47,804 nt of DNA from a virus (lineage: Duplodnaviria > Heunggongvirae > Uroviricota > Caudoviricetes): the IMG/VR virus record IMGVR_UViG_2541047728_000005; one strand, 5' to 3'. This document shows positions 1 through 47,804 of this stretch, in pieces. Both the position numbers and the translations under genes were made by a program. Each line of letters begins with the position of its first letter. Positions within the stretch are counted from its first letter, which is position 1. The notes under the pieces are model-generated. The model was not told the origin of the DNA. It ran no database searches and saw nothing but the letters and a program-made list of their open reading frames with translations.

Positions 1-95
1 CTTGCCGACTTTGCACTCTTGATACTTCTTAACGTATCCTCCAACATCTCTTTCGAAGGAACAGCACCATCAAAAGAGTTAATCGAAGCAACAAT
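1..95. repeat. Terminal duplication: 1..95 is identical to 47710..47804 (circular-assembly overlap; unique length 47709 bp)
   Basis: Direct reading: the 95 nt 'cttgccgactttgcactcttg...atcgaagcaacaat' occur at both window ends. Confidence 0.9.
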
Positions 96-479
96 TGAGG
101 CTGTATATGGTTCGCCAGGTGGTGATGTTTCAAACCATTCTGTTATGTTTACCTCTCCACCCAAGCTATTTACTACATCTTCAACCGCTGCCCTTGTACC
201 CTTTATTCGCTTTGTTCGTATTATTGATTTAAAAACAGAACGCTTTAACGATACAGGCCAACTATCCCTCCATGTATCAGCATTCCATTGCCAAGCTAAA
301 TGATCGAGAACAACTGAGTCCAGGTTATCAACAACGCTATATATTTCTGTCTTATATATTAAATTGTTAATTGCTTGTAGTTCATCATCAATAGCTTTCG
401 ACATAGCTATCACGTTGGGATCGCTAGCTAAGTTAGGAGGTAAAACATCCAACAAGCTAACATTAAAGATATCAGCCAT
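1..479 (-). CDS. Tail protein I (P2 gpI / Mu gp48-like), 5' part; ORF crosses the circular junction and continues at 47607..47709 (193 aa total)
   Basis: Minus-strand ATG at 479..477 overlaps stop of upstream J-like gene (ATGGCTGA); translation MADIFNVSLLDVLPPN...NITEWFETSPPGEPY resembles P2 gpI; frame continues into window end without stop. Confidence 0.7.
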   Translation of the reverse strand, partial: MADIFNVSLLDVLPPNLASDPNVIAMSKAIDDELQAINNLIYKTEIYSVVDNLDSVVLDHLAWQWNADTWRDSWPVSLKRSVFKSIIRTKRIKGTRAAVEDVVNSLGGEVNITEWFETSPPGEPYTASIVASINSFDGAVPSKEMLEDTLRSIKSAKSA

Positions 480-1596
480 CCTCTAACCCCGCATACTGGC
501 AATTTATATTTCTCTCTCTGGCGACCTGTGTCTCTCCAACCACATTAAAAACAGGACTTGATATTTCTAATCTTTTAGCCCCAGCATTTTTTAAACGTTG
601 AATAATTTCATCTGGATTTATATCTCTTCCCATAACCGAACGTTGCCATTGTTTATACTCATCAATAGCTTTCTCAACCTCACTTTGAATTAAAGTTGTT
701 CTGTTTTTGTCCGATGAGTTAATCCAGTATTTAATTATTATATCGTATTCAATGCTCTCTGGTTTCTTAACAAGAACTTTATCTGTGAATGGTCGAATAT
801 TAGTTGCAGAGAGAACGCTATTTATCTGCTCTAATAGTTCATCAGAAGGTATATCTCCGTTCTCTAACAAAGAACGGATTTCTACAATTCCGGGCGATGG
901 TGTATATACATTCACATCTTTTATATTCTGATTGGCTGTTCTTGTCCAATATTTATAAGAATCCTCCGGCCCTGCTGTAGACAGTTTTTCCGGCGACAGT
1001 TTTATTCTTTCAGCATAATTATCATCTGACTCCGTATCAGCACCAGAATTAGATGTTGTTACATTCCTTACTCTGGAAACATACGGCAACGGAGTCACCA
1101 ACTCATTTATTTGCCCTGGTAAAAAGCCATTCCCAGATAAACCAGGTATAACAGCATATCCTGAGACTGTACCAACTGTTTTCCCAGCAGGTATTTCCAA
1201 CAAAATATCTGTTTGGAAAATAACACCATTTCCAGTTGAAACTTGAGTGCCAGCAGGTATTGTATATATCCCCGATAATTTTGTTGACAGATTAAACTCA
1301 AATGTAGTCAAGGCAGATTGAGCTTCCAGCCTAGGCGTATCCGTCAGATAGCCTATATGGTCGAGATATTCACCTTCACCATATGTAAGAAGGTTTTGTT
1401 TTGCAGAAAAATCGATAGCTTTTCTTTGCTGTATAATAATCTCACACAATGATAAGATGAATAATCTACGTGGATCAGCAGGTGCTAATGTTTCACCTGT
1501 TATACTCTCAAAAGCCCTGATTGAACGAGTTGTTATATCAGTCGGGTTAGAATCTGCGAAAGTAATATCTGGCAAACCACCACGCGGCAACGTCAT
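472..1596 (-). CDS. Baseplate protein J-like (P2 gpJ / Mu gp47 family)
   Basis: 374-aa ORF between W-like and I-like genes in conserved V-W-J-I-H-G order; translationally coupled to gene I. Confidence 0.65.
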   Translation of the reverse strand: MTLPRGGLPDITFADSNPTDITTRSIRAFESITGETLAPADPRRLFILSLCEIIIQQRKAIDFSAKQNLLTYGEGEYLDHIGYLTDTPRLEAQSALTTFEFNLSTKLSGIYTIPAGTQVSTGNGVIFQTDILLEIPAGKTVGTVSGYAVIPGLSGNGFLPGQINELVTPLPYVSRVRNVTTSNSGADTESDDNYAERIKLSPEKLSTAGPEDSYKYWTRTANQNIKDVNVYTPSPGIVEIRSLLENGDIPSDELLEQINSVLSATNIRPFTDKVLVKKPESIEYDIIIKYWINSSDKNRTTLIQSEVEKAIDEYKQWQRSVMGRDINPDEIIQRLKNAGAKRLEISSPVFNVVGETQVARERNINCQYAGLEDG

Positions 1597-1913
1597 TCTC
1601 TAACTCCTATCACAAGTTTTGGCCTAATAAAACCATCAGAAACGTCCGTTCTTTCAAAAGTAACAGAATGGATAATCGCTCTAGGCTCAAACTCACTAAT
1701 TTTTTGAATTATTTCTCGTGTTGCTGTAGCAATAAAAATTGGACTAGGGCTATCAACAAGACTTGAATTAATTCCTAATTTTCTGGCATATGGTACAGTG
1801 CCAATTTGAGTATTAATAATAGTAGAGACATTTTGCAAAACTTCTTCTACAACTGTTTTGGGCGACCAATCAATCGAGTAAGAAGGTGATGATATGGTAA
1901 ACGTATTATTCAT
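1593..1913 (-). CDS. Baseplate wedge protein, GPW/gp25-like
   Basis: 106-aa ORF, size and position upstream of J-like gene; overlapping stop/start with neighbours. Confidence 0.55.
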   Translation of the reverse strand: MNNTFTISSPSYSIDWSPKTVVEEVLQNVSTIINTQIGTVPYARKLGINSSLVDSPSPIFIATATREIIQKISEFEPRAIIHSVTFERTDVSDGFIRPKLVIGVRE

Positions 1914-2377
1914 AATAATTTACCTAACGCACTTCTAGTTTTTGACTCTATATTGCCAGCAATATCAACTAATGCTTCTTTCAGAGAGGTCTGTCCGACT
2001 TCCTGTAATTTAATGCCGACGATAATCACTCGTGGATTCCCAGTTGGACCGAAATAAGTCCATGATTCCTCTATATCTGTAATTATAAAATTACCAAAAT
2101 ACTGAATACCAATTACAACAGGATTTACTTCCTGAATTGATTGCATTGTCCTAAGTAATGAAAGCGCAGCCAATGGAACAATGCCAAGTGTTGTATCCAA
2201 CCGCATATTAAAACTAACTTCATCCAGATCTGGACCTATATCCTCCAGAACAGGTTTAAGCCCAATAACATCATGGCGCGCTACACGACGCTTTGACGTC
2301 CTTTTAAAATTGTTGAACGTATTCACCACTATTGATGAGGCAACAAAAGGCATTGTACCAAGCATACCCACAATCAT
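1910..2377 (-). CDS. Baseplate-associated hypothetical protein
   Basis: 155-aa ORF translationally coupled inside baseplate operon. Confidence 0.4.
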   Translation of the reverse strand: MIVGMLGTMPFVASSIVVNTFNNFKRTSKRRVARHDVIGLKPVLEDIGPDLDEVSFNMRLDTTLGIVPLAALSLLRTMQSIQEVNPVVIGIQYFGNFIITDIEESWTYFGPTGNPRVIIVGIKLQEVGQTSLKEALVDIAGNIESKTRSALGKLL

Positions 2378-2994
2378 GCCTGAGCCTCCGTTGTCGGAGC
2401 GTATTCCCCCTGAGCTGTGTGATGGTGGCCTTTAGATTTAATCCCATCAACATCTATATCACCACCAACAACCTTAACATTCCCAGAAATTGTAGCTGCA
2501 ACACCTCCAGCAGAAGATCCTTTCATTCCACCTTTGAAGGTTAGTAATCCTTCAACTGTAGCATTTCCGGTAATGATGGTTTCTGGAGCATCAATAGTTA
2601 CGGTTCCTGTAGCCTTAATGGTTACATCTCCGACAGCATCAACAAGGAGTAAATTAGATTCTCTGTCTATCTCAATACGAGTTCCGTTATTAAATCTAAT
2701 GACGCGTTTATTAACAGTATTAGATGGCGGCTTCTGTGTTTCATCATAAAAACTACCAAGAATAAAACCTTGTTGCGGCCCCGCGGGATGAAAGATACAC
2801 AAAACTTGCTCACCAATATCTGGCATCCAGTAATCAGCATTCTTATCTGTATTTTTCACAATAACTGATAACTTTGCCGAAGTGACGTTATCCTGATCAT
2901 CGAAAGTAACTCTTGCTGTAACATCACCATCATCAATATCAGAAACAACGCCAACTCTTATAGTCTGACGTAATAATGTTTCTAAATCATTCAT
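2374..2994 (-). CDS. Baseplate spike / assembly protein V-like
   Basis: 206-aa ORF with Gly/Thr/Val-rich beta-helix-like C-terminus (GDVTIKATGTVTIDAP...), position after D-like gene. Confidence 0.6.
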   Translation of the reverse strand: MNDLETLLRQTIRVGVVSDIDDGDVTARVTFDDQDNVTSAKLSVIVKNTDKNADYWMPDIGEQVLCIFHPAGPQQGFILGSFYDETQKPPSNTVNKRVIRFNNGTRIEIDRESNLLLVDAVGDVTIKATGTVTIDAPETIITGNATVEGLLTFKGGMKGSSAGGVAATISGNVKVVGGDIDVDGIKSKGHHHTAQGEYAPTTEAQA

Positions 2995-2996
2995 AA

Positions 2997-3998
2997 TTAA
3001 TACCCATTAATTACTCTTCGGACATCAATCGAGGTGGTATAACCACTAGTCCCAATTGAATGCACAGCTTTCGATATAAGATATTTTCCAGAAAATGAAC
3101 CGAATCCCTCCAGATTTATAGTTACACCAGCTACCAATCTGGTGTCTCCAACCAATACTAAAGATCCGGTATTTTGATATCTATTTTTAAGCCGCAAAGC
3201 AGCCTTTGCCTTACGTTTTGCTTCATCTAAATTAGCTACCAGTTTTCTTATCTTAAGATTCGACCCTTCTTCTACGGATGGATCTACCCAAGTATACGAA
3301 AGCGACTTTCTTTTTTTAGGTACGCGATATTTGCACGTGCAACTTTTATACAAATCTGTAGATTGTGTGCTAAAGCTATATCTGATTATCTCATCAATAC
3401 CTAACGTAAGCGTAGCGATAGGATCTTTTTGCTCAAACATCTCTTGAGCAAATATTATTAATTGGCTATCAGTGACCTTTAACGACAACCCTTCATCCTG
3501 GCAAAGTCGATGGAGAAATTTTAAATCGCTTTCCTCCATTTGATCTTCACGCGCATAATATGGATTACTATCACCATCAATAAGAAACAACAGTTCAAGG
3601 TTAGCTAATTTAGCTATAGAAGTTGCTATATCTTTAAGAGTTGTTTTTTCCCATGCATTACTTTTTAAATCACGTCTAATGCCTGATGAAACAGGAACAG
3701 AAACAGCAGTTACCTCAACCACAGAAGGTGGTCCAGAGCAAGTTATGCCATCTACCTGGAATTTCCCGCACTCAAGGACGATTTGATTTATAGGCTTAAA
3801 GCTCAAATCAATAAAATCACCCTTTTTAGGTGTCCAGTCTCCAGACCATTTCCCATCATCATTTTTTAATATAATAGAAATATCATCGACCTGACCATCT
3901 TCATTATCTGTATAAGACATTGACAAAACATCAGGTGACATATGAGCGGTAATATTTACATTCTGATATATAACATCAAAAAGCGTTTTACGTAACAC
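2997..3998 (-). CDS. Tail protein D-like (P2 gpD / Mu gpP late control D family)
   Basis: 333-aa ORF downstream of tape measure and X-like gene, as in Mu/P2 tail operons. Confidence 0.55.
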   Translation of the reverse strand: MLRKTLFDVIYQNVNITAHMSPDVLSMSYTDNEDGQVDDISIILKNDDGKWSGDWTPKKGDFIDLSFKPINQIVLECGKFQVDGITCSGPPSVVEVTAVSVPVSSGIRRDLKSNAWEKTTLKDIATSIAKLANLELLFLIDGDSNPYYAREDQMEESDLKFLHRLCQDEGLSLKVTDSQLIIFAQEMFEQKDPIATLTLGIDEIIRYSFSTQSTDLYKSCTCKYRVPKKRKSLSYTWVDPSVEEGSNLKIRKLVANLDEAKRKAKAALRLKNRYQNTGSLVLVGDTRLVAGVTINLEGFGSFSGKYLISKAVHSIGTSGYTTSIDVRRVINGY

Positions 3999-4206
3999 TA
4001 TTGCGTCTCCACGGAGGAAAATTGTTTACTGATATTGGCATAACCGGAGCATCAGGAACTTTAAGAATAATTCCCGCAGAAAAAAGCACCGTAAAGCGGT
4101 GCTCAGTATTAGCATCAATAAGAAGATAAGACAGGTACTCATTACCATACAACTTTAAAGCGATACTATCCCATGAGTCCCCTTGAACCGTTCTATAATC
4201 ATCCAA
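3988..4206 (-). CDS. Small tail protein X-like (LysM-like)
   Basis: 72-aa ORF directly after tape measure gene; MDDYRTVQGDSWDSIALKLYG resembles LysM-type tail protein X. Confidence 0.45.
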   Translation of the reverse strand: MDDYRTVQGDSWDSIALKLYGNEYLSYLLIDANTEHRFTVLFSAGIILKVPDAPVMPISVNNFPPWRRNSVT

Positions 4207-6991
4207 AACTTAATCTCCGTTGTTGGAACATATGAGCACTCAATTTCTTCTCAAAATCAGAATATCCCGCATCTAATGCTCTTTTAGCTGCCGCCTCAGT
4301 TTCCTTTGGTGAACCAGCCGGAAGATTGATTACAGGTGAATAGGTTATTCCACCAGTCACAGCGTTAACGTTCTGGCGAGGTCCAGAAGTCCCAGCGGCA
4401 GATATCCCGTGAGGTGATAAATTTGATTGCCCGAACTTGCTTGCTATTGCATTCTGTAAGCTGTTATTCCTGCTAACACCTGATGCCAGAGTAGTCATTA
4501 TTGCACCACCTGACTTTGTTAGCTGTGAGAATGGACCTTTTTTCGCGTCAGAGAACGGTAAATACTCACGTACAGAAGAAAAAACGCCTTTCACTTCATT
4601 AATTAAAGCATTTGCTTTTGATTTTATCCCAGTGATTAACGTCTCAATTATTTTTGCGCCTGACTCACTCCAGTTTATTCCAGATAAATAAGTCGTTACA
4701 GATTGGAATGCTCTTATAAAGAGTCCAACTGGTGAAAAACGCATAAAAACAGATACCAGTGTATCTATGATTTTCTTTCCTGTTTCGCTCCAGTTAATGC
4801 CAGAAAGGTAATTTGTTGTAATTTTAAATGCTTTAATTAAGAACGGAAGCGGAGACATCCATTTAAAAGCACTAATTAATGTACTGTAAATTCTTACTCC
4901 TGCCGAACTCCAGTTTATGTTGGAAAGATAATCCCATGCTTTACCAAACATAGATATAATCCATCCATTGAGGTCAAAGTTTAAGATAAAGTTTTTTATA
5001 GCCTCAAATGATTTAACTGTATATTCCTTAACAGAAGGCCAAACTCTGACAGCATAATCTCTGATCTTATCCCAATTCTGATAGAGCAATATTCCTGCGG
5101 CAACCAGCGCAGATATAGCCATCTGAATCCACCCGAAGGGTGTTAGCTTTGTCGCTACAGATAAAGCCAGCATAGCTACCCTACACGCTATAACCACACT
5201 TTTCATGGTTAGAAACGCACCTGCCGCCATCACTATCTGAGACACAAAATTGGGGTTGTTAGCTACAAATTCACTAATTTTTGTAATCAGCGGAACCAAA
5301 ACACTAAGCGCGGCATTCAAAGCAGGTTGCAAGGCCTGACCAAAACTTAATGATGCATTGCTAGCCTGAATACGTAATTGTTTCAATCGCTCCGCATTAT
5401 CTTTCGTTATGTTGGCAAAATCGCGGTCAATAACAGCACTTCCAGCTCCAAGAGATGTTGCTTTGATTCTCTGGTATTCCTTCCAGTTTTGAATCATCGG
5501 ACGAACAAAGTTCTGAACCTGCATATCGCCAAATAGTTCACCAAGTAACTTCTGATCTCCGTTCTTAGTCATTTTCATGACAGAATGCATTGCAGCTTCG
5601 AATGGATTCTTCCCTTTTTTCTGCGCTGTTGTAACAATTTTATATAAATCTACACCGAAATTTTTCTTTGCTTTTTTTAGTGTTTCAGGGGAAAGTATTT
5701 TTGCCAAAAAGTTGTTCATATTATTAGCAGCCTCATCCGAAGTTGCAGCCCCCTTGCGAGCTATCTGCAAAGCTGCACCCATCGTCGCGGCTGCTTCTTT
5801 ACCTCCCATTTTTAATGCCTGGAACTGAGCACCAAGCACAGGAAGATTTTTGGCCATATCTTTAAATTCAAAGTTCCCCTCTTTCCCTGCCTGAACCAGA
5901 ATCCCCATTGCAGACTTCATTTGAGATGGATCAATCTTCAATGAGTCACTTAATGTAAATGATGCTTTCGAGACATCGAGGATATCAGAGCCAGTAGCTG
6001 TAGCTGTTCGCCCAATAGTTAGTAGATTCGCCTGAGCCTCTTTATAATCCTGCCCAGCAGCGACGAGAAAACCCTGAGCGGCCTGAATATCAGATGCAAA
6101 CTGGTTGGTAGCCGTTCCGGTAACAAGCATCGCCTGCCCCATCGCCTGAACTTCTTCCGGCTTCATATCTGCCGTAAGACCAATCATTTTGTTTTCACGA
6201 TTGAAATTTGCTGCATTGTTAGCAGCAGCAAATGCACCAGCCGCTACAGCACCAGTTTGTAATCCTGACCTTACAAGTTGACTCTTTGCCTCACCAAGAT
6301 GCTCTCGCTTCAATTCACGCTGCCTTTCCAACGCGCGGTTTAACTCCTCCTGAGCACGTTTTACTGCAAGAACATTTTTCCGTGCTTCAGCCAACGCATT
6401 TTTATAGCTGTTAATTTTATCAATACGTTGTTTTTCTAATGCCCGGTTAAGTTCCTCCTGCTGTTTTTTCACTTGCTGAACATTTGCTCTGGCTAAAGCC
6501 AAAGCCGTTCTGTAGCGGTTAACCTGCTCAACGCTACGGGCCTGAGCCTCACGATTACGATCAATGCTGGCTTTAAGCTCTTTCTCTCTTGAGGCCAAAG
6601 CTCTGGCAGATGTATCAGCTCCCTGATAGGCAGACTTTAAAGCGGCCAGTTCTTCACGCTGAGAACGTAGTGATGCTCGTAAATTTGATGAATGTGTTTT
6701 TGCCTTCTCAAAGTCACGAAGCATCGCTCTGGTTGGATTGGCCGTGTTTTTTATTTGCTTCTGTAACTCTTCAACGCGAGCGGCAGCTTTATGATATTCG
6801 AGGGCAGTCTGTCCAACCTTTACTTTTACAGATTGTAGCTTTTGAATTTCCCCATGTTCTTTCGTTAATCCAGCAAGCTCTGCATTTAATTTAGCAACAG
6901 CCTGATTAGCTGTAGTAAAACTTTTGGGGAGAGAGGCGGCAACTTTGCCGCCAATTTCAAAAGCCAGCTTAAAGTTCTTATTGCTGGCCAT
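4199..6991 (-). CDS. Tail tape measure protein
   Basis: 930-aa ORF; N-terminal coiled-coil with repeated AxLxRxxEE heptads, central hydrophobic segments, three tandem ~37-aa repeats ending in YLSGINWSE; follows chaperone gene. Confidence 0.85.
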   Translation of the reverse strand: MASNKNFKLAFEIGGKVAASLPKSFTTANQAVAKLNAELAGLTKEHGEIQKLQSVKVKVGQTALEYHKAAARVEELQKQIKNTANPTRAMLRDFEKAKTHSSNLRASLRSQREELAALKSAYQGADTSARALASREKELKASIDRNREAQARSVEQVNRYRTALALARANVQQVKKQQEELNRALEKQRIDKINSYKNALAEARKNVLAVKRAQEELNRALERQRELKREHLGEAKSQLVRSGLQTGAVAAGAFAAANNAANFNRENKMIGLTADMKPEEVQAMGQAMLVTGTATNQFASDIQAAQGFLVAAGQDYKEAQANLLTIGRTATATGSDILDVSKASFTLSDSLKIDPSQMKSAMGILVQAGKEGNFEFKDMAKNLPVLGAQFQALKMGGKEAAATMGAALQIARKGAATSDEAANNMNNFLAKILSPETLKKAKKNFGVDLYKIVTTAQKKGKNPFEAAMHSVMKMTKNGDQKLLGELFGDMQVQNFVRPMIQNWKEYQRIKATSLGAGSAVIDRDFANITKDNAERLKQLRIQASNASLSFGQALQPALNAALSVLVPLITKISEFVANNPNFVSQIVMAAGAFLTMKSVVIACRVAMLALSVATKLTPFGWIQMAISALVAAGILLYQNWDKIRDYAVRVWPSVKEYTVKSFEAIKNFILNFDLNGWIISMFGKAWDYLSNINWSSAGVRIYSTLISAFKWMSPLPFLIKAFKITTNYLSGINWSETGKKIIDTLVSVFMRFSPVGLFIRAFQSVTTYLSGINWSESGAKIIETLITGIKSKANALINEVKGVFSSVREYLPFSDAKKGPFSQLTKSGGAIMTTLASGVSRNNSLQNAIASKFGQSNLSPHGISAAGTSGPRQNVNAVTGGITYSPVINLPAGSPKETEAAAKRALDAGYSDFEKKLSAHMFQQRRLSFG

Positions 6992-6996
6992 TAGTA

Positions 6997-7179
6997 TTAA
7001 TCCTCATTAAACACGTCAATCCATGCGACGATTCGCCTCAACCGAAGCGAAAGCCAGTAGGATATAGGTGTTGATTGAGATGATTGAGATAGAGAACTCG
7101 CGGCCCTCATTATTTGCTTATCAATAGGTTTTTGCTCATCAAAACCTACGAGAGCAAAAAATTCTGTACCTTTTGACAA
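6997..7179 (-). CDS. Tail assembly chaperone frameshift extension (GT-like product via -1 frameshift)
   Basis: ORF in -1 frame overlapping 3' end of 7146..7427; slippery T_TTT_TTG on minus strand (plus 7155..7161). Confidence 0.45.
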   Translation of the reverse strand: MSKGTEFFALVGFDEQKPIDKQIMRAASSLSQSSQSTPISYWLSLRLRRIVAWIDVFNED

Positions 7180-7427
7180 ACTTTAACAAAGTCTTTCGCT
7201 GGTAATCCATTCAGATACTCTATTGGACGACCAATACAGCGAGCAGCCAAGGCTGCATGGACTTTATTATCAAGTGATGTTTGAACTGAAACATGCCCTT
7301 GAGATTGCAGTAAGTCCGATACCTCTAAAATATCACTGCCTTTTAGGTTGTCTAAATCAAGGTTGAGTTCAGTCACCGGCTCAAAGTCTTCAAAACGATA
7401 TTCTTTACTTAATTTAACGGTTTCCAT
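7146..7427 (-). CDS. Tail assembly chaperone (G-like), upstream frame
   Basis: 93-aa acidic ORF immediately upstream of tape measure gene; overlapped by -1 frame ORF. Confidence 0.6.
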   Translation of the reverse strand: METVKLSKEYRFEDFEPVTELNLDLDNLKGSDILEVSDLLQSQGHVSVQTSLDNKVHAALAARCIGRPIEYLNGLPAKDFVKVCQKVQNFLLS

Positions 7428-7436
7428 TTTGTCACC

Positions 7437-7958
7437 TTATAAACCTAAATCATCACGAACGCTTTTTAATATATCTTCACCATCAAAGATACAAATAAAG
7501 TTCAACTTATCAATTTCCAGGACTTCTTTTCCATCAATAAATAATTTGATATAGAGAACTTCAAATTCATTCTCTGAATCAGTAGCCTTTGCCACCTGTA
7601 GCGAACCTAAATCCAGTTTTTTAGGGTTTAGCTTCATTGAAGCCCGAATAGGAACCGTTTTATATTTTCCTGTTCCTGCATCATAAACCTGCTGGCTACC
7701 GCGAAAATCTACCTGATGCGATGAGGATAGAAATAATTTTGTACCAGCAGAGGTCAGAGTTCGCCATTTAAGAGAGACAGTCATTGGTTTGAAATGCCCC
7801 AGCGTTCCGCTCTCAAGCTCTCCAGCGATACCTGCACCACTAACAGTTTCTGTCATCATCTCAATTGATGGCAGCTTTGCGTCAGCAACACCGATAATAC
7901 GGTTTCCTTCACCGTATACTGTAAAGTTAATAAGTCTCTCAGGAATTTGATTGCTCAA
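7437..7958 (-). CDS. Tail tube protein
   Basis: 173-aa ORF between sheath and chaperone genes (Mu L-M order). Confidence 0.55.
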   Translation of the reverse strand: MSNQIPERLINFTVYGEGNRIIGVADAKLPSIEMMTETVSGAGIAGELESGTLGHFKPMTVSLKWRTLTSAGTKLFLSSSHQVDFRGSQQVYDAGTGKYKTVPIRASMKLNPKKLDLGSLQVAKATDSENEFEVLYIKLFIDGKEVLEIDKLNFICIFDGEDILKSVRDDLGL

Positions 7959-7974
7959 AGCAACCTCCTATTAT

Positions 7975-9438
7975 TTATTCAGAAAACAAGTTCAGCAGAT
8001 AATCAGGATTATATTCCATGACGAACTCTATATCTCTGGCAGGTGAGAATGGTGTCATTTTTACATGGAATTTAACAATCCCGTCCATCAATGACGTAAT
8101 CGTGTTTTCAGACTGATCAAAGGTAACAACACCACCTGCAATATCCTGATTACCAGTGAGGCCGTTAAGCCAAATATTCGCACTAGTAACAATCGATTCA
8201 ATTAATCGACGGTTTGCAGGATTGTCTATTTTTGACCAATGCGAAAGAATTAACGTATTACCCACCCAGTTAAACATACGTCGGCAAACACGAAATGCGT
8301 CTTTGGGGTCTGTAGATGTTGGATAAATAGCATTACGGTTTCCCCATGATTTCCAACCATCAAAATTAAGGCTTGTTACAATCCCCTGTCCATTTAAGTA
8401 GTTTGCCTGGCTAATGTTAAGCCATACCTCACTGCCATCTTTACGTACAGCACCGTCCATCTGTAGTTTTATATTTGACGGAGAACGTGATGGAATATCA
8501 CCATACTGACTATCCAGCAAGCATGTTGCTGCCGCTAAATGGGTTGAGTGATGGTAAATATTGTCACCAAGTTTCACCATCGGCCAGCACACTGTCTGGT
8601 TAGCTGCCATATGATTATTGTTCTGCTTCCATTCAGGAACAGCAGAATAATCACTGATAGTAGATTTATCAGTCGGCGCATCGGTGATAGCTTCTGCTTT
8701 GAACAATTCACTAATCAGCGCAGCTTTAGCCGCCATTAGCTGGCCAACTTCACTATCAGAACTAAATCCAGGCGCAATCACTTGTCCTGGAACTAGTTTG
8801 AAGCGGGGATAAACATCCGACAGTAACTCAAGCCCCGTATTCGCTTTAGTGTTGGAATCCACACCACCAATAATATCGTTTTTAGTTACAGCCCCGGGAT
8901 CAAGATGCGTATAACTAACCTTAAGAGTGGCGTCTTTTTCAGTAATTTTTCCTCCGCTAATAGCGGTAATGACCGTATAGCCATTATCATCCAGCGCCAG
9001 TACATAATCTGTATCAACCGTTAACCCTGGAGAATCACCATCTGCTTTTTTCACAACAACAGATTTATATAAGACACCATCGTTAGAGAGCGTACCTTTC
9101 CCGCCAGAAAGTTTTACTACCTCATCAGTTACGTCTTTCTTATGCTTTGCTGGATCAAGCACATTGATAAATACAACTGGCGCAACACCATATATTCCAA
9201 ATGCGACTTTAATTACTTCGCTTAAAGTATATTTCTCGAAGTTTGTGCTATATCCTATTTTAGATACGGCCTCTGCGTATGTATAAGCAATGATAGGTTT
9301 ATTTACCGCTGAGGCTGGATCTTCTAACTGATTAACAGGAGTTGTACCAAATGCGACAATCAACCCAGCACTAACTTGTACTGGAGGAGTTATAGATGTA
9401 GCCAGCTCAGATATATAAATACCGTGGCGATATCCCAT
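7975..9438 (-). CDS. Tail sheath protein
   Basis: 487-aa ORF, size and position typical of Mu/P2-type contractile sheath, upstream of tube. Confidence 0.65.
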   Translation of the reverse strand: MGYRHGIYISELATSITPPVQVSAGLIVAFGTTPVNQLEDPASAVNKPIIAYTYAEAVSKIGYSTNFEKYTLSEVIKVAFGIYGVAPVVFINVLDPAKHKKDVTDEVVKLSGGKGTLSNDGVLYKSVVVKKADGDSPGLTVDTDYVLALDDNGYTVITAISGGKITEKDATLKVSYTHLDPGAVTKNDIIGGVDSNTKANTGLELLSDVYPRFKLVPGQVIAPGFSSDSEVGQLMAAKAALISELFKAEAITDAPTDKSTISDYSAVPEWKQNNNHMAANQTVCWPMVKLGDNIYHHSTHLAAATCLLDSQYGDIPSRSPSNIKLQMDGAVRKDGSEVWLNISQANYLNGQGIVTSLNFDGWKSWGNRNAIYPTSTDPKDAFRVCRRMFNWVGNTLILSHWSKIDNPANRRLIESIVTSANIWLNGLTGNQDIAGGVVTFDQSENTITSLMDGIVKFHVKMTPFSPARDIEFVMEYNPDYLLNLFSE

Positions 9439-9728
9439 TATTTAATCTCCATGATAGAAGAAGAAACTCTAGAGTACATTACATACTCGACACTGGTTTT
9501 ATCAGAAAGTCTTTTTTCTGCATCTGAAAAATCACTGGTTGCCACAAACAAACACTTTGCACCAGGAATATGTGATATTAATTTTTCACACTCTGGAGAT
9601 AAGCCATTCTTAAATAGTTTATGCTTCAAAATTGAGAGTTGAGGGATTGTTGGCCCTATATATACAAATGTTTGAGCAACATCTTCCTTCTTTTCTATAT
9701 CTTCTTTACTACTTTTCTTATTAGCCAT
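9438..9728 (-). CDS. Hypothetical head-tail joining region protein
   Basis: 96-aa ORF translationally coupled (ATGA-type overlap) to sheath gene. Confidence 0.4.
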   Translation of the reverse strand: MANKKSSKEDIEKKEDVAQTFVYIGPTIPQLSILKHKLFKNGLSPECEKLISHIPGAKCLFVATSDFSDAEKRLSDKTSVEYVMYSRVSSSIMEIK

Positions 9729-36111: not shown

Positions 36112-36179
36112 TTTCTGCCTACCAATAAACCCACGCTATGTGGTTGTCTCTGTTAAAATCCCGCCGTATTGACATGAAT

Positions 36180-39485: not shown

Positions 39486-39866
39486 TTACTTAACGAGGAA
39501 TAAAAATGGTTTATCGTTCGGCGGTGTAATCGGGGCTGGCTCGCTTTTGCTCATGCGATCAGTGTACCAGGCCAACTCCTTGTCAAAGTAAGCCTGATTA
39601 AAATAGGCCATGAATGTGGTTTCAAATCCATAACGACCGCTAATACGGAGCATCTGATTGCCGTTCTCTGTTTCCAGATATACCTGGGCACGTTCCTGAT
39701 TCTCCTTCAGCCAGGTTAAAGCCTCATCGCACGAGGACAAACGATACTCATCATCGTAGCCGTCATCGATGCGGCTTGAAGAAGAACGGCAAATCACGCC
39801 AACAGAACCAGCCAGGATAGTTTGAATTTTAAGGAAAGCGTTTTTGCGGATTTTAATCATGCTCAT
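39486..39866 (-). CDS. Hypothetical protein with N-terminal signal-like hydrophobic segment, first gene behind cassette copy 3
   Basis: 126-aa ORF; ATG preceded by conserved CCGGAGATAACCCG leader. Confidence 0.45.
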   Translation of the reverse strand: MSMIKIRKNAFLKIQTILAGSVGVICRSSSSRIDDGYDDEYRLSSCDEALTWLKENQERAQVYLETENGNQMLRISGRYGFETTFMAYFNQAYFDKELAWYTDRMSKSEPAPITPPNDKPFLFLVK

Positions 39867-39874
39867 CGGGTTAT

Positions 39875-39985
39875 CTCCGGTTTAACCAGGGCGGGTATCG
39901 CTCGGTTTCGGGTATAACCTTAGGAAATTTTTTCCCACCTGTAAAGCACTTTTTATATAAATCTATAATTATATAATTCTATGAG
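39875..39985 (-). promoter_or_regulatory. Conserved promoter-leader cassette, copy 3, with TATA-rich array
   Basis: Near-identical to 23458..23562 and 30406..30520 (single a/t difference in 'aaccttagg'). Confidence 0.6.
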
Positions 39986-40029: not shown

Positions 40030-40329
40030 TCAGATGTTAAACGCTATTCGTTTTCCTGTGGGAAGCTCAACATCCAGGCTTAATTTGCCTCCCATAGCTT
40101 CAACGTAACGCTTTAATGTCGCCAGCTTTAAATCATTTCCGCGCTGCTCCAGCTTTGTTACTGCTGGCTGGCTTATACCCATCGCCTCAGCAACCTGTTT
40201 TTGTGATAACTGGAGTTCTTCACGCATCATCTGCAAGCCGACCTCAAGAATCATCTCATCTGCCATTTCTTTAATTCGCGCCTGGCTTTCAGGTGAACGG
40301 CTGGCAATCGCCTCATCTAATGTTCTCAT
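40030..40329 (-). CDS. higA: HigA-like antitoxin (XRE HTH)
   Basis: 99 aa; HTH LSQKQVAEAMGISQPAVTKLEQ; directly downstream of and overlapping toxin gene. Confidence 0.7.
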   Translation of the reverse strand: MRTLDEAIASRSPESQARIKEMADEMILEVGLQMMREELQLSQKQVAEAMGISQPAVTKLEQRGNDLKLATLKRYVEAMGGKLSLDVELPTGKRIAFNI

Positions 40330-40682
40330 TACTTGCTCTCCAGTGTGTTCAGATGTGCTGCAAACTCATCCTCAGCTATACGCACCAGTTTTTCATAAAA
40401 CCGCTTATCGTTACTTTTGTCTCCTGCACAAAGAACGATGGCCCGGCGAATCGGATCGAACGCATAAAAGGCTCTTATCGGACGGCCAGAAAACTGAACG
40501 CGAAGCTCTTTCATATTTTTGTACCGAGAACCTTTTACGGTATCGGCATATGGCCTGGGTAACTCAGGTCCGTAAACCTGTAGCTTTTTCAAATCAGCCA
40601 AAACCTTTTCCTGAAGAGCGTCTTCTTGCTCATTTAGCCAGTCGTCAAATCGCTGGCTAAAAAGTACCGTCCACATGCTCAA
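40329..40682 (-). CDS. higB: HigB-like toxin (RelE/ParE superfamily, Gp49-like addiction module killer)
   Basis: 117 aa; toxin-first order with XRE antitoxin; pattern ...DWLNEQ...KNMKELRVQFSGRPIRAFYAFDPIRRAIVLCAGDK. Confidence 0.7.
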   Translation of the reverse strand: MSMWTVLFSQRFDDWLNEQEDALQEKVLADLKKLQVYGPELPRPYADTVKGSRYKNMKELRVQFSGRPIRAFYAFDPIRRAIVLCAGDKSNDKRFYEKLVRIAEDEFAAHLNTLESK

Positions 40683-40732: not shown

Positions 40733-40920
40733 TTTCAAGAAAAACGGGGCTATTTAACATAATGGACGTTATCGGCACCACCGGATCACCGTTCATTGTC
40801 GGATCTAAAAAATCCGCTCAAAAGATCATGTTTTCCTGGGCGTTTTCCACCGTTTTTTATGTTGCTTATTTGTTAATGAAATCTCGTTTTCAGTTTCGCC
40901 TCATTTTCGACGCGAAAGCC

Positions 40921-41859: not shown

Positions 41860-42138
41860 GGGCGAACATATTCACAGGCAAAGCCTGCGTAAGTTAAATA
41901 AAGAAAGTCTTAATAAAAGAAAGTGATTTTGCATTTATTTGTTTAGTGCATCTATTATAAAAAACCATTTGCATATACATATCAGAACTGTGGATAACTT
42001 TATTAGCCGATGCCTGTAAAGGCGATATTTTTGCTGTGTTCAGGTTTAGAGAAAATTAATTTAGATTGTTTTTTGAACAGATATTTTATTGCGACGTAGA
42101 TAATCCTCCGGTAAAACCGGATTCATCATTCAGGTGGG
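41860..42138. other. Candidate plasmid origin region downstream of repA (AT-rich, DnaA box TTATCCACA at 41989..41997 on minus strand)
   Basis: Perfect DnaA box consensus; location immediately 3' of repA as in IncFII oriR; flanking hairpins at 41746..41762, 41781..41804, 41841..41856. Confidence 0.45.
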
Positions 42139-43119
42139 TTAATGTTGGAGTGATTTCCAGGTCTTTCTTAACCTGTTATAACGCTGCTCAACGAGGGATC
42201 GTAAATATGCAAGGTCAGCACCAGGATACATGCCATCAGCAAATTCCTGACTAACCTCTCTGGTGATTTGATGACGAAGTTCGGCCTCTCCCTTTTCCCG
42301 AACAAGACGCGCAGCTCTCTCCGCTGCTTTCTGTTTTGCCTTTATCTCTCTGGCCGTCTTCCTCTGACGCCATACATTCTCCATCTGCTCCTGAATAACA
42401 ATACGCTTATAATCAGCCTCCGTTATCGCTTTTTTAAGCCGTTCGCTATTCTTCGCATTGAAGTAATTAAGTTTCTGGCTAACCGCACGTCTCCATGCTT
42501 GTTCAGTAATACCAACGGTTTCCAGCAGTTGATCACGAATCTCTATTTTCGCTGGCCAATACTGTTTATTCACCCGATCCCAGCGACGTTCATAATCAAT
42601 AAAACCTAACGCTTTCAGTTGCGACAACGCCCTTGTACAGCGCGTTATAGACTTGTTCCCAGCTTCGGATACGGTAGACAGGCCGCAAAAATCAGCCAAC
42701 GCCTCAGCACTAGCCAGAACCCGCTTAGAAATGATGTTTACATGGTGCAAAATCGCAGCGATCACAGCATTAATCGCCCGACGACGATGCTCGTTTATCC
42801 GGCGCTTCCGCTCTGACGGTTGATTAACGTAGAACGCAACCTCACACGTAAGATCACGCCCATTAATGCGCTGTAAAGCATCAGATAACACCAGCGGCAG
42901 CTTGTGCGTATGGTGCTTTGGAGGCTGGAACTCCGGCGACAAATTACAAACGTAAGCTGAACGTAGAGACGGCATTGGTCTATCCATATGTTCGCTCTTG
43001 CGTCCACGGAAAACCAACGTATAATGGGAGTTGTCGAGGCGCCCATGGATTGTTGTTGTTGGTTTTCCGTGGATGTCGCAAGAAGCCCGCAGATTTATCT
43101 GCGGGCTTTTTGTTTCCAT
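42139..43119 (-). CDS. repA: Replication initiator RepA (IncFII RepA1 family); true start possibly internal Met at 42987
   Basis: Segment RRRAINAVIAAILHHVNIISKRVLASAEALADFCGLSTVSEAGNKSITRCTRALSQLKALGFIDYERRWD closely parallels my recollection of R100/R1 RepA1. Confidence 0.8.
   Translation of the reverse strand: METKSPQINLRASCDIHGKPTTTIHGRLDNSHYTLVFRGRKSEHMDRPMPSLRSAYVCNLSPEFQPPKHHTHKLPLVLSDALQRINGRDLTCEVAFYVNQPSERKRRINEHRRRAINAVIAAILHHVNIISKRVLASAEALADFCGLSTVSEAGNKSITRCTRALSQLKALGFIDYERRWDRVNKQYWPAKIEIRDQLLETVGITEQAWRRAVSQKLNYFNAKNSERLKKAITEADYKRIVIQEQMENVWRQRKTAREIKAKQKAAERAARLVREKGEAELRHQITREVSQEFADGMYPGADLAYLRSLVEQRYNRLRKTWKSLQH
43031..43112 (+). ncRNA. CopA-like antisense RNA candidate in repA leader
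   Basis: Plus-strand TTGCGT-N16-TATAAT (42998..43025) followed ~60 nt later by 11-bp GC hairpin agcccgcagat...atctgcgggct and TTTTTGTTT (43084..43115), antisense to repA 5' region. Confidence 0.5.
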
Positions 43120-43585
43120 ATCTGGTCACTTTCCAACCAGACACCCACAATCATAACCACGTTACGTGGTTTTAAGAGAACTCTACCACAACACTTTCGG
43201 TCATGCACGAAGTCTCTCACTGATCGAACGATAATCCACCAGTAAAAGGATCTAAATTGGATCTCGTTTTGCGAGCATCATACTACTGGCCTAACTCCAG
43301 TCAATGATTCCCAGCCAGAAACCTGCGGTAAACTCATCGTTCAGCAATATGCTGTCCGGCTTCAAAGATAAGGTGACATCATCCCTTAACAGCGCGGCCA
43401 GTTCAGTTAAAGGGCTGTTCTGATTTAATGCTGGCCACTCATACCTGGTAATAAGTGGTCAGTCTTAACACTCACTATTTGATTGCACCCGTGTTGACGA
43501 TTTGTTACTGGATATCAGACACGCTGGATAGCCAGTAGAAACATACCATTAAAATTATTACAATAATTGGTCACATGATTATCTT

Positions 43586-44149
43586 ATGCTGAATAATAAA
43601 GATATGAATATTAATGAACTTAAAGACTGTATTCACTATGAAGTAATCGGTAGCGAGCGTCCTTTCTCCTGGCGAAAGGCAATTGTTCGCGCAATAAAAC
43701 ATAGAAGGGTTCGTTATTTATTTTGGTGGCGCATAGCCAAATACCTTTTTGATAAAGGCGGATACTGTCGGAAGATTGCGGGAAAAATAGAACGTTTCAT
43801 TCTTGATAAATATAATGTAACAGTCCCTTTAACTGTAAATATAGGGAAAGGCTTTGATATTTCTTATCTCAACAGTGTTGTTATCGGTCACAAAGTAACA
43901 ATCGGTGAAAATTGTTCAATTAAGCCCGGAGTAACTATTGGACTTCGCGGGGAATTTAATGATATGGATATTGTTATAGGGCATAATGTGACCATTGGTT
44001 GTAATGCCACCATTCTTGGTGGCAAAGTGCGTATAGGAAACAATGTCACAATAGGTGCTCATGCATTGGTATTGCATGATATTCCTGATGATTCAACATT
44101 CATCACTAAATTTCAGTCTGAAGTTATCTGCTCGTCCTCCCGAACATAA
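43586..44149 (+). CDS. Hexapeptide-repeat (left-handed beta-helix) acetyltransferase, moron-like
   Basis: 187 aa with tandem [LIV]-G-x-x-x-x-I-G repeats ([21 protein letters not shown]...[32 protein letters not shown]); AT-rich; convergent with and overlapping 3' end of tfa. Confidence 0.8.
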
Positions 44150-44730
44150 CCCTGATTCATCAGCTCTGGCCATACGATATCCGGAGCTGTACTGGTGTCA
44201 ATTCTACTCACTAATACTCTGTATTTTCTCCAGGAATCCAGTTGTGAATTTTCCTCGTTTGTTGCTATTTCAAGATTAACTGCATCCTGCAGAATTGCGA
44301 TGTTATCTGTTGCTTCCTGGATCAACCTTGCCTTTTTCTCTTCCGCTTCCCGTATCCGAAACAGTTTTTCTGCTTCCTCATCATTCACCCAGGATACGCC
44401 GTCCCACTTCTGATACTCCCCTGCTGGCGACAACCAGGTGACATTCTCTGGTAGCGGTCCGAGTTCAGAAATAAACAATGCGTCCCCCGACGCCACGTCA
44501 TAGACCGTTTTACCACGATGGTCTTCAACAATATTCCACGATTCATTTTCACTGTTAAAAACTGCCACAAAGCCAGCAGGAATTTCCGGTGGGGCGATAT
44601 CTGTAGAATTAGCTGGCAGCCCTGTATGAGGTGGAATATATGCGTCACCTTCACCAATAAACTCATTAGTTCCGGCCAGCAGGTTATAAATTTTTACGGT
44701 ACGTGATTGTTCACTCATTCTGAATGCCAT
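44113..44730 (-). CDS. Tail fibre assembly protein (Tfa family)
   Basis: 205 aa beginning [58 protein letters not shown], closely resembling E. coli prophage Tfa proteins; TAATG overlap with fibre gene. Confidence 0.85.
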
Positions 44731-47576
44731 TATGCAAGCCTCACAATATAATTAAATGCGATGTTTTTAACGGTGTTTTCCGCGTTACCAGCAGCGTTAA
44801 CGGTGATGGTGTGTCCATGTGAACCAATCGCAACAGAGTGCGTATGAGCGCCAATACCAACAGTGTGTGCATGTGCCCCAGCACTTGTAGCGGTACCTGA
44901 TACTGAGTGGGTATGTGCGCCAGAAGAAGGCACAGTTCCATTCCCCACCACCGTGCCACTTGATGAACCATCCAGCCAGTCGAAATTCATACCGCCACTG
45001 TTTGGTCTCCTTAATGGAACGGTATGAGTATGTGCGCCAGCACTATTTGCAGTACCAGATACATTATGGGTATGTGCACCTGTGTTATTCGTTGATTTAG
45101 TACCGTAATCAAACGACGATGTGGTTTTCGTACCCAAATCCGTATTGGATGCGCTGGCACTGTGGGTGTGCGATTTAATGCCATCCTGTTCCTGAGACAA
45201 TACGGCCCGACCACTGGCGGGTTTGCCCTTGATTGTCCAGCCGCGCATATCTGGAATAACACCAGAAGGATAGGCAATAGCCAGTTTCGGATATGCTGCC
45301 TTATCAAACGTCTGCCCCAGCATGATTGCATAACCTGCAGGTGGCGTATCTGATGGCCACGGCAGCGGAACACCTGGCGGAAACGCTTCAATATTTGCCG
45401 AGCCGTCAAATTTTACGCCGTTAATTGTCCTTGCCGTTTTCAGCTTTGTTGCTGTAGCAGCATTGCCGGATAGTTCGCCTGAAAGACCACCGCTGAATGT
45501 CTGTTTCGCCATCCATGTCTGAGCTTCGTCGATAATTGGCACACGTCTTGTCGTGATCGTGCGGCTTCCCGGATTTCCTGAAATGCGAACCATAAAAAAG
45601 CGGTAGTTGGCTTTACTTACAGTGCTGCGCCATACATGCATTGAGCGTCCCGAACCAGAATCATCACTCGGACCGACTGAGATGTTTATCAGGTTGCCAT
45701 CAATGACGCCCCAGTCCATACCGTCGGGAATATTGGTCATGTTATCAAGCCGAACGGTTATCAGACTGCCCGGCACAAAATCGTAGGTCTGCCAGTCCAG
45801 GCTGGTGAGCTTTGCCACAGCACCGCCGATACCCAGATTCAGGGGAAGTGAATACGAGGTGTAGACTTCCCGCCATTCGCTCCATGAGCTGCCGGTAAAG
45901 ACGCGCTCAAAGGTGCGGCCTTTAAGGGTTGTACCTGTTCCGGCAGTTGTATAACGCTGCCATACATTAACACCATCAAAGCGCCTCAACACCTCCAGAA
46001 TACCGAGGACTGTCACGCCGTTTCCGTCCAGTATTGGACCGTTGGTCGCTTTACCTGTAACGCTGTAAATACCTGGTGAGGTTACATCATTCAAATCACC
46101 GTCGTAATAACGACTCTCTGACTGATGACCGACTCTTAACCACGGTTCCCACTGCGGATTTGATGCATCCCAGCTTGCCGCAAGACAGCGGACATACATA
46201 TTTCCACGGCGAGTGGTATAACGTTGCGTTCTTCCATAATTTCCGCCTTCGAGGATCTCAAGCATCCCCTGAGCAAAGCCGCCTTCCTCTGGATAATTGC
46301 GTTCATATGAAGCTATAGCTGAGCTACTGTTACGCCATAAACCAAGATGCTCGGCGGCTCCAAGCGTATTCAGGTCTATAGTCGTACTCAAAGGGCGGGT
46401 AGCAGATTGAGTGTGACGCCATACGCCCCACGGACCATCAGTGCCATTCCACTTATTGGCGAGTTTACGCATGTATACATTGCCGTCTCTCGTGGTAAAG
46501 CGTTGCGTACCTGCAAAATTGCCGGCAGCAAAAACCTCAAGCACACCGACAGCATTATCTTCCGGGAAATTTTTCTCCAGTGTTGCGTTGGTGGATGTTG
46601 CTTTAGACCAGATACCTGAATAAGCCTTAACAGGACCAAACGTATTCAGATCAGCATCAAGCGGCATTTCGCCATTGTTTTTCATAAACGTCAGGCTGGT
46701 AACGCCAACATTGTCCAGAAAAGCTGATTTATCCTGGATATCTGCACCGTTCTGATTTTTCGCCAGACGTGAATTTGCGTTGTCATTTGCTGCCTTGACC
46801 GCTTTTGGCGTTGCCGCCTGCGTTTCAGACGTACTGTTAGTGGCACTACTGAGCTGAACAATCCCTTTTCGCGCCGTGGTAGCGTCCTGTGCGGTGTATT
46901 TAGCGTTAGCCAGGTCATATGCAGCCTTAACAGCCTTAGGCGTCGCTGCGAGCTTTTCAGACGTGCTATTGGTGGCATTACTGAGTTGAACAATGCCTTT
47001 TGATGTTAAAGTTGCATCAGGATGATTACGTGATTGCTCATGTTTTACAATAGCTTGCTTAAGCCGCTTTGCTGAAACAGCCAAGGAATCATCTGTACCT
47101 GCATCAATTTCTTGTTCATTAGCAAATCTTGCTACTCCAACAACAGTTTCGGTTGCGGGAGGGTTAATAAACTCAACATCACCAAATGTAATGTTTTTAG
47201 TATCAAGATTTTTAATTGCTATATCACTTGATATTAAAGCAATTGTAGAAGATGCTTTATTTATTATTACTTGTTCTTGCGAGTATACAGCAAACAATGT
47301 TCCTTTATTTGTATACAAACCTATTGTATGGACAACATACTCATCTTTACTATCATCCTTCGCAGTTACATGAATGGTATCAGGAGAAACGACTTTGCCT
47401 CCTATTGTGGTAAGTCGCTTTATTTCATCTGTTATTTTTGTTTGTGTGGTTGATGTGGCATAATATCTACTACCTAAACCAACAGAAACGATCTCAACTT
47501 TATTTGTTCCAGTCTTGTTGGCATTAACCAGCGCCTTACGCCCGGCGTCAGTCATCGTAAATAATAATTTACTCAC
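44730..47576 (-). CDS. Tail fibre protein (P2 gpH / lambda Stf-like) with C-terminal HxH repeat tip
   Basis: 948 aa, GTG start with AAGGAA RBS; duplicated [27 protein letters not shown] motif as in P2 gpH; C-terminal GAHTHxV repeats. Confidence 0.85.
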
Positions 47577-47606
47577 GCTTAATTCCTTGGATTAACAAAT
47601 CGCAAA

Positions 47607-47804
47607 TTAGCACTCACCAATTAATCGTACATAAGACACAGGCTGGAAAGCACCGACAATACCAACACCACCTGAAACATTGGTTGCTTGCGAAAATGTA
47701 AATAGTGTTCTTGCCGACTTTGCACTCTTGATACTTCTTAACGTATCCTCCAACATCTCTTTCGAAGGAACAGCACCATCAAAAGAGTTAATCGAAGCAA
47801 CAAT
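47607..47804 (-). CDS. Tail protein I (gpI-like), 3' part continuing from 1..479 across the circular junction
   Basis: Reading frame from 479 continues through 47709 to TAA at 47609..47607; 47710..47804 duplicates 1..95. Confidence 0.65.
   Translation of the reverse strand: MVASINSFDGAVPSKEMLEDTLRSIKSAKSARTLFTFSQATNVSGGVGIVGAFQPVSYVRLIGEC

Follow-up and report, generated by a model that had tools for sequence, protein, structure and literature searches.

How does a phage persist in its host when its genome joins a full set of virion genes to the maintenance genes of a plasmid? This question is raised by the IMG/VR virus record IMGVR_UViG_2541047728_000005 (Duplodnaviria; Heunggongvirae; Uroviricota; Caudoviricetes), a stretch of 47,804 nucleotides that we analyzed over its whole length (hereafter “the window”; all coordinates refer to it, with + or − for the strand). 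Our analysis indicates that the window is very probably the complete genome of a temperate myovirus kept as a low-copy circular plasmid, i.e., a phage-plasmid. Gene content was evaluated from 85 non-overlapping open reading frames (ORFs) of at least 40 aa, with Pfam searched for all but the tail fibre, its assembly protein, and one junction ORF, and with the regulatory region additionally scanned using PHROGs and NCBIfam.

Closure of the circle and extrachromosomal copies

The longest prefix of the window that is also its suffix comprises 95 bases: positions 1–95 are identical to 47,710–47,804, and removal of the right copy yields a circle of 47,709 bp with a G+C content of 44.5%. The two ends fall in tail gene I, of the P2 type, whose 5′ part lies at 1–479 (−), with the start codon at 479, and whose 3′ part, including the stop codon, lies at 47,607–47,709 (−). 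When joined over the junction, these parts form a single ORF of 193 aa that matches Pfam Tail_P2_I (4.2e-26), which bears out an earlier sequence-only reading in which this gene was complete only across the junction. A closed plasmid, NZ_CP103471.1 (pMB9698_3, E. coli strain 4973; 47,715 bp), was linearised at another point than the window and is collinear with the whole circle, the two differing by 7 mismatches and one 6-bp indel. The 95-mer occurs once in this plasmid, and the sequence through the junction (40 + 95 + 40 nt) is identical to that of the circularised window; in two IMG/VR contigs, the 95-mer is also internal and present in a single copy. Because NZ_CP103471.1 combines a single 95-mer with an identical junction, the repeat can be interpreted as an assembly overlap rather than a flanking direct repeat. 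A genuine direct repeat, the scenario that the sequence-only reading had itself set against closure, is thereby ruled out, and its closed circle of 47,709 bp is confirmed by the 95-bp identity and by a closed plasmid spanning the junction. The sequence is not new: near-identical copies are already public, and the window is a tidy example rather than a discovery.

The copies found elsewhere are extrachromosomal. The structural half of the element was detected in 72 of 5,426 complete E. coli genomes (~1.3%; E ≤ 1e-50), and all 72 records measured 31–94 kb, none of them a chromosome. In the same search, 107 of 108 places carried the label “plasmid”; the single place labelled “chromosome” was rejected as a chromosomal copy upon inspection of all 72 records, each of which was 31–94 kb long. 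At E ≤ 1e-5, 5 of 174 places were chromosomal, and among the matches listed, one was 104 bp. PLSDB included many siblings of 47–50 kb, one of them the 48,488-bp plasmid of ATCC 25922 (CP009073). Taken together, the 72 of 72 plasmid-sized records and the gene content support the lifestyle first proposed from the letters of the window, that of a temperate phage kept as a circular low-copy plasmid and not as an integrated prophage. Members of the same group have also been deposited as phages: vB_YpM_39, vB_YpM_41, and vB_YpM_44 (OR545053-55), whose recorded host is Y. pestis EV76, match the structural half of the window at 98.7% identity.

Some records depart from the usual size. CP032086 (94,204 bp), an ATCC 25922 assembly, is a possible dimer or cointegrate, JBUBMA and JBUBMH carry extra DNA at 57 kb, and CP024829, CP035831, and CP172156 have lost part of the element, at 31–39 kb. 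A 68.5-kb IMG/VR contig (3300029841_000009; L103 1–5990) was considered as an integrated copy and discarded: at about window position 27,500, the element is joined instead to Ead/Ea22, DUF551, and P22/Sf6-type terminase genes of another phage. Because this partner DNA consists of phage genes, the contig is best understood as a metagenome chimera or a natural recombinant, and not as a chromosomal junction.

Replication, segregation, and immunity

The replication gene repA (42,139–43,119, −) encodes a protein of the IncFII superfamily, with matches to Pfam IncFII_repA (PF02387; 1.3e-42) and to NCBIfam RepA_IncFII_LM (NF040977; 231.5 bits for a cut-off of 70). The protein did not reach the classical incFII_RepA equivalog TIGR03474 (78.6 bits vs. 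a cut-off of 446.9), and Rfam provided no match to the CopA antisense RNA, either at the gathering score or at E ≤ 1. Since the LM model was passed, the equivalog failed, and Rfam CopA remained without a match, RepA belongs to the IncFII superfamily but not to the IncFII incompatibility type. The “IncFII-type repA” of the sequence-only reading can thus be retained at the superfamily level, but not in the classical sense. No replicon type was assigned in PLSDB, no CopB-like repressor gene was seen, and a RepA scan across one genome per species returned no match.

The leader of repA appears to host a second layer of control. On the plus strand, we predicted an antisense RNA of ~88 nt (43,031–43,118, +; −10 TATAAT at 43,020–43,025) whose predicted fold is a single stem-loop, its loop 16 nt long, plus a terminator (−41.1 kcal/mol, z −6.2). 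Compared with two relatives at 75–85% identity, this antisense block is the best-conserved stretch of the region and displays three compensatory pairs; it is not coding, because indels of 7 and 4 nt are tolerated in relatives. The block also bears on where repA begins. The annotated start is at 43,119, and alignment with relatives revealed a conserved ATG at 42,985, so that the 45 codons in between (42,985–43,119) overlap the antisense block. Because the block carries frame-breaking indels in relatives, the ATG at 42,985 is the more likely, and probably the real, start of repA, rather than 43,119. A candidate repA promoter (TTGACT-16-TATGAT) is located at 43,277–43,304 (−), and in the predicted fold of the sense RNA the repA ribosome-binding site is buried in a long stem. 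On the other side of the gene, an oriR-like region (41,900–41,997, −) includes a perfect DnaA box, TTATCCACA (41,989–41,997), followed by an AT-rich stretch. This box is the only perfect one in the element and lies 142 bp after the repA stop. A single match is by itself not significant, at least one being found in 38 of 100 shuffles; what counts is the position, just downstream of repA, which is that of IncFII-type origins.

Segregation would rely on a small ParA partition ATPase of 222 aa without an N-terminal DNA-binding domain (34,353–35,021, +; Pfam CbiA/ParA/MipZ; PHROG ParA-like, 2e-39), with a deviant Walker A motif at residues 14–22, and on an 82-aa partner encoded just after it (35,065–35,313, +). 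The partner is predicted to combine a disordered basic N-terminus with a conserved strand-helix-helix pattern; in its AlphaFold model (mean pLDDT 65.5), the disordered N-terminus and a short conserved stretch are followed by helices at residues 47–59 and 62–79. Based on this model, the partner is a plausible candidate for a ribbon-helix-helix centromere-binding protein. A ParA/ribbon-helix-helix pair had been proposed earlier: the ParA half is established by Pfam and PHROGs, but the nature of the partner is only plausible, with no family or fold match. Homologues of the partner were also obtained from Salmonella and Citrobacter contigs of 45–48 kb.

Two arrays of 8-bp repeats (TATAGATT/TATATAAT; 3–4 units each; 34,244–34,346, +) flank a candidate parA promoter and represent a putative centromere/operator, and another array separates parA from the partner gene (35,038–35,052, +). 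The promoter, TTTTCA / TATGCT, was read by eye and is absent from the consensus-scan listing. Overall, such arrays were found at seven intergenic places (23,537–23,567, 24,668–24,697, 29,269–29,298, 30,485–30,499, 34,249–34,344, 35,038–35,052, and 39,953–39,983), including sites upstream of a tRNA gene and of a winged-helix gene; the 8-bp units gave 20 matches for 0.25 expected, and the arrays are present in a diverged relative too. The 82-aa partner is the obvious candidate for the protein that binds these arrays, and we hypothesize, by analogy with omega or KorB, that it may act through them as a global regulator. An 8-bp array is also part of a promoter/5′ untranslated region cassette of ~120 bp, present in three copies at 95–99% identity and made up of the array, a −35 TTTACA, a −10 TATGGT, a leader, and a ribosome-binding site. 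The copies end at the ATG of an 89-aa gene (23,447–23,567, −), of a DUF3560 gene (30,395–30,512, −), and of a 126-aa gene (39,863–39,983, −), the last being preceded by a terminator-like hairpin. This triplicate cassette could be a substrate for module shuffling among relatives.

The element further encodes a higBA addiction module in which the toxin gene comes first and overlaps the antitoxin gene by one base. The order of Pfam matches, Gp49 for the HigB toxin (Gp49/HigB-like; 40,329–40,682, −; 1.7e-21; RelE/ParE toxin in RefSeq) and then HTH_3 for the helix-turn-helix antitoxin HigA (40,030–40,329, −; 1.7e-09), upholds the higBA assignment made from the translations. A ryfA-family RNA (35,536–35,832, −; Rfam RF00126, 141.8 bits, E 1.7e-36), located between the partition locus and the immI-like module described below, may be a second addiction locus by analogy with the ryfA of Salmonella, which encodes a small toxin.

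Just upstream of the higBA promoter is a dif/cer-like XerC/XerD site with an 11-6-11 layout, GGTGCCGATAA-CGTCCA-TTATGTTAAAT (40,752–40,779, −). It differs from dif by two mismatches, both in the XerC arm, while the XerD arm is perfect and the 6-bp centre is as in dif. The pattern was matched in 0 of 100 shuffles, and the site is identical in the Yersinia phage and IMG/VR copies and retained in relatives at 75–85% identity. It probably resolves plasmid dimers through host recombinases, in place of a self-encoded resolvase, a role that suits it better than integration. In Pfam and PHROGs (with the tail fibre, its assembly protein, and the junction ORF outside the Pfam scan), none of the ORFs gave a match to any integrase, resolvase/invertase, transposase, protelomerase, or excisionase. 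The profile scans, integrase and protelomerase searches included, are therefore in line with the absence of any recombinase, excisionase, or protelomerase gene noted by the sequence-only reading. A site-specific recombination site is nonetheless present, namely the Xer site, which that reading had overlooked.

Lysogeny would be governed by a CI-like repressor (33,094–33,750, +; Pfam HTH_3, 4.5e-11; PHROG transcriptional and CI-like repressor). Its C-terminus includes a weak S24-like domain (Peptidase_S24, 0.0018, below cut-off), which, read by eye, appears to lack the catalytic Ser/Lys. Three palindromes of the form AAACCAC-N5-GTGGT, putative operators, are located between the early operon and the repressor gene (32,937–33,058), and a perfect copy is found downstream of the repressor gene and upstream of a 124-aa gene and parA (33,791–33,809). 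Palindromes of the same type occur just upstream of the isrK/C4/antirepressor operon (36,128–36,146) and, as AAACCACGTAACGTGGTT, in the repA leader (43,154–43,172), where the half-sites are conserved in relatives L010 and L011. Overall, the motif had 16 strand-hits for 0.95 expected, and the palindrome layout is kept in L010, whose repressor is 65% identical. Since one palindrome is common to the repressor/early switch, the antirepressor operon, and the repA leader, this pattern suggests that immunity and plasmid replication are coupled via the copy in the repA leader. In the antirepressor operon, an isrK-family RNA (36,204–36,277, +; Rfam RF01394, 70.2 bits) and a C4 antisense RNA (36,302–36,389, +; Rfam RF01695, 84.3 bits for a gathering score of 45) immediately precede a 63-aa ORF and a 380-aa antirepressor (ORF6N + Rha; 36,443–37,773, +; Pfam ORF6N, 2.6e-20, and Phage_pRha, 4.1e-12; PHROG anti-repressor), following the logic of P1 immI.

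From these features, a life cycle can be proposed. RepA would start theta replication at the oriR-like site just downstream of its gene, with copy number set by the ~88-nt antisense RNA, which would pair with the repA leader, whose stem hides the ribosome-binding site. ParA and its 82-aa partner would segregate the copies by acting on the 8-bp arrays upstream of parA, dimers would be resolved by host XerC/XerD at the dif-like site, as Cre/lox does in P1, and HigBA, possibly along with the ryfA-type RNA locus, would kill plasmid-free cells. In the lysogen, the CI-like repressor would bind palindromes at the early promoter, its own gene, the antirepressor operon, and the repA leader. Induction would proceed via the antirepressor, restrained by the C4-type antisense RNA as in P1 immI, and the genome would be cut for packaging at a cos site near 18.69 kb.

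Virion genes and competing explanations

Nearly all lytic genes are carried by the minus strand, and the Pfam matches cover a complete virion, packaging, and lysis set (terminase, portal, protease, capsid, tube, tape measure, baseplate, holins, and endolysin), in agreement with the full virion and lysis gene set claimed by the sequence-only reading. Specifically, a contractile-tail/baseplate module (472–10,214, −) includes, from Pfam and RefSeq names, J, W/gp25-like, U, V, D, tape measure, chaperone, tube, sheath, and completion proteins, with Pfam matches to Baseplate_J, Phage_P2_GpU, Phage_base_V, Phage_GPD, PhageMin_Tail, and Phage_tube. A lambda-type head/packaging module (10,211–17,706, −) encodes capsid E, a ClpP-like protease, the portal, DUF6148, the large terminase gpA, and the small terminase (Phage_cap_E, 1.2e-54; CLP_protease; Phage_portal_2, 6.5e-101; GpA_ATPase; GpA_nuclease). 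The lysis cassette (25,097–26,304, −) consists of a GH108 endolysin with a peptidoglycan-binding domain and two holins (Glyco_hydro_108, PG_binding_3, Phage_holin_3_7, and Phage_holin_8). The probable cos cleavage region (18,689–18,700, −) was placed from the termini of other records: it is homologous to the ends of the linear record of Vibrio phage X29 and to the start of the vB_YpM_39 record, which bracket the 11 nt GGTCATTCGAA. A gene with a ParB/Srx-like nuclease domain adjoins cos (17,697–18,287, −; Pfam ParB_N) in synteny with phage X29.

With all morphogenesis ORFs equal in length to those of the phage isolate vB_YpM_39 (e.g., terminase 1857 nt, portal 1575, capsid 1044, sheath 1464, tape measure 2793, J 1125, and I 582), we consider it improbable that the window is a decayed, cryptic phage-like plasmid, which would replicate and segregate but no longer make infectious particles. 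Shortened E. coli derivatives of 31–39 kb do exist, and the window copy is known from sequence alone; yet its cos region, lysis genes, and repressor are intact, and its structural half shares the 98.7% identity with deposited phage isolates reported above.

We assign a still smaller chance to an integrative phage that would use host XerC/XerD at the chromosomal dif, as CTXphi-type elements do, so that the circle would be the excised form only. In favour of such a phage are the conserved dif-like site, which has an 11-6-11 layout, a perfect XerD arm, and a 6-bp centre, and the lack of a self-encoded integrase. However, none of the 72 E. coli records with the structural half is chromosomal at E ≤ 1e-50, the 5 chromosomal places out of 174 at E ≤ 1e-5 include, among the matches listed, one of 104 bp, and the full replicon, partition locus, and addiction module of the element would be superfluous in an integrated prophage. 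Finally, a linear virion genome with genuine 95-bp direct terminal repeats would also give identical ends in an assembly but is barely credible, as these ends split tail gene I, closed assemblies and IMG/VR contigs have one internal 95-mer, and the terminase is of the lambda gpA cos type, with a cos-like site 18.7 kb away.

Several observations nonetheless count against a temperate phage-plasmid. The roles given to RepA, the antisense RNA, the Xer site, the palindromes, and the 8-bp arrays are predicted from sequence, and the extrachromosomal state in the sampled strain is put forward by analogy with other assemblies. ParA, at 78.5 bits, is under the NCBIfam ParA_partition cut-off of 180, and its partner had no match indicating ribbon-helix-helix homology in Pfam, PDB-sequence, or Foldseek searches. 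An ARG-box search near the Xer site found no accompanying ArgR box, and no LexA box was found, the sole CTGT-N8-ACAG match being intragenic and no better than chance. Pfam and PHROGs recognised no dedicated gene for lytic replication (initiator, helicase, or primase) across 26,691–32,919. In addition, no publication was found on the Yersinia isolates vB_YpM_39, vB_YpM_41, and vB_YpM_44.

The remaining genes are arranged around these modules. Upstream of the packaging genes (18,844–23,450, −) are a 239-aa protein with a “minor tail” PHROG, a ParB_N-methyltransferase fusion, a second ParB-like gene, and small membrane proteins; in total, the element has three ParB-like genes, one of them fused to a methyltransferase. 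These are followed by an MT-A70 DNA methyltransferase (23,563–24,144, −; Pfam MT-A70, 3.3e-22) and, between this methylase and the lysis genes, by a tRNA-Met with anticodon CAT (24,453–24,528, −), which has an 8-bp repeat array just upstream. The early leftward operon (26,691–32,919, −) encodes DUF7446, ASCH-like, winged-helix, DUF3560, and DUF1064 proteins, a Ref-type RecA-dependent nuclease, and unknowns; the DUF3560 protein partially matches a “primase” PHROG. The tail fibre (948 aa) and its assembly protein occupy 44,113–47,576 (−), part of which is 93% identical to the P2 fibre gene. The adjacent 187-aa ORF (43,586–44,149, +) was considered as a Hin-type invertase, being invertase-sized, and rejected: it is a hexapeptide O-acetyltransferase by Pfam (Hexapep) and NCBIfam (EpsC/CysE-like). 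This tail-fibre locus (43,586–47,576 vs. L002 18,835–23,874) is a swap point between the window and the Yersinia phages.

Relationship to known phages and plasmids

Phage-plasmids spread genes by the viral as well as the plasmid route, and they often go unnoticed in routine surveillance. The family to which the window belongs is carried by ~1.3% of the complete E. coli genomes, that of the reference strain ATCC 25922 among them, and falls outside the named groups known to typing tools. With a size of 48 kb, a single replicon and partition locus, a resolution site that relies on the host, and compact immunity circuits, it would be a convenient model of how repressor and copy control are coordinated. 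We see some chance, albeit a limited one, that these elements represent an undescribed family of enterobacterial phage-plasmids, with plasmid functions and phage control interlinked and with three defining traits: a repressor operator in the leader of the sole recognisable replicon, that of the antisense-controlled RepA (possibly also the lytic one), a ParA partner that may act as global regulator through the 8-bp arrays at seven intergenic places, the triplicate cassette included, and dimer resolution by host XerCD. No paper describing this family was found within a coverage that did not extend to the 2018 survey of enterobacterial plasmid prophages (Gilcrease and Casjens). Named phage-plasmid groups span 55–111 kb (PMC11652158, Table 1), and the window matched none of P1, N15, SSU5/pHCM2, pKpn, pSLy3, pMT1, pCAV, or AB, given its size and the lack of Cre, protelomerase, or a DNA match (the lists of Pfeifer et al. 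being outside this comparison). pSLy3 was set aside as a possible family, since it is an SSU5-type element of ~110 kb.

Among the closest relatives, pMB9698_3 (NZ_CP103471.1) is essentially the same molecule as the window. About 70 sibling plasmids of 47–50 kb are 97–99.8% identical in the structural half; what sets them apart are insertion sequence or transposon insertions and exchanged modules in the vicinity of the tail fibre, antirepressor, and early region; RefSeq annotates them simply as plasmids. Yersinia phages vB_YpM_39, vB_YpM_41, and vB_YpM_44 are 98–99% identical over 64–78% of the element and share its RepA, ParA, HigBA, Xer site, tRNA-Met, and gene order. Their fibre is shorter and is accompanied by additional, inverted fibre genes and a Hin invertase; the corresponding place in the window holds an acetyltransferase and a longer fibre gene. 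The “pseudolysogenic” Yersinia phage vB_YpM_HQ103 was rejected as a relative, as it is a 32-kb P2-type phage.

Similarities to classical plasmid prophages are found mostly in regulation. P1 is the classic circular low-copy plasmid prophage, with Cre/lox, ParA/ParB, a C1-type repressor, and pac headful packaging. The window shares with P1 a contractile tail, a C4 RNA upstream of the antirepressor (immI logic), and a Ref-type nuclease, but is half the size, lacks Cre/lox and has a host-dependent Xer site instead, and relies on another RepA family, a small ParA, a CI-type repressor, and cos packaging. N15, like the window, combines a lambdoid-style repressor with an antirepressor under small-RNA control, and in both the repressor may also reach the plasmid replication gene. 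N15 is linear, however, with a protelomerase and a primase-helicase RepA, neither of which was found in the window by Pfam.

The plasmid-maintenance genes have counterparts of their own. Like the IncFII, IncL/M, and IncB-type replicons (R1, R100), the window has a RepA of this family, a leader countertranscript, a buried ribosome-binding site, and a downstream origin with a DnaA box; unlike R1/R100-type replicons, its RepA fails the classical IncFII equivalog, and its predicted antisense RNA would be analogous but unrelated to CopA. Type Ib partition systems (TP228 ParF/ParG; pSM19035 delta/omega) similarly pair a small ParA with a small partner, which has a flexible N-terminus and a strand-helix-helix C-terminus, and have arrays of short direct repeats ahead of parA; as with omega, the repeats of the window recur at several other promoters. 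Here, the partner differs in having no sequence or fold match to ParG or omega, and its DNA binding is putative.

For the virion, comparison of portal proteins places Vibrio phages X29, phi 2, XM1, and Rostov 7 nearest among classified phages, at ~65% amino acid identity. These Vibrio myophages display the same succession of genes (ParB-like gene, terminase, head, tail, gene I) and homologous genome termini, but they encode tyrosine integrases and O/DnaC-type replication genes where the E. coli element has RepA, ParA, Xer, and Hig modules. Because the structural order is shared and these modules differ, the E. coli family looks like the same virion chassis with another module in place of the integration/replication one. 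With its structural relatives in Vibrio being integrative, the family records the clean replacement of an integration module by one for plasmid maintenance.

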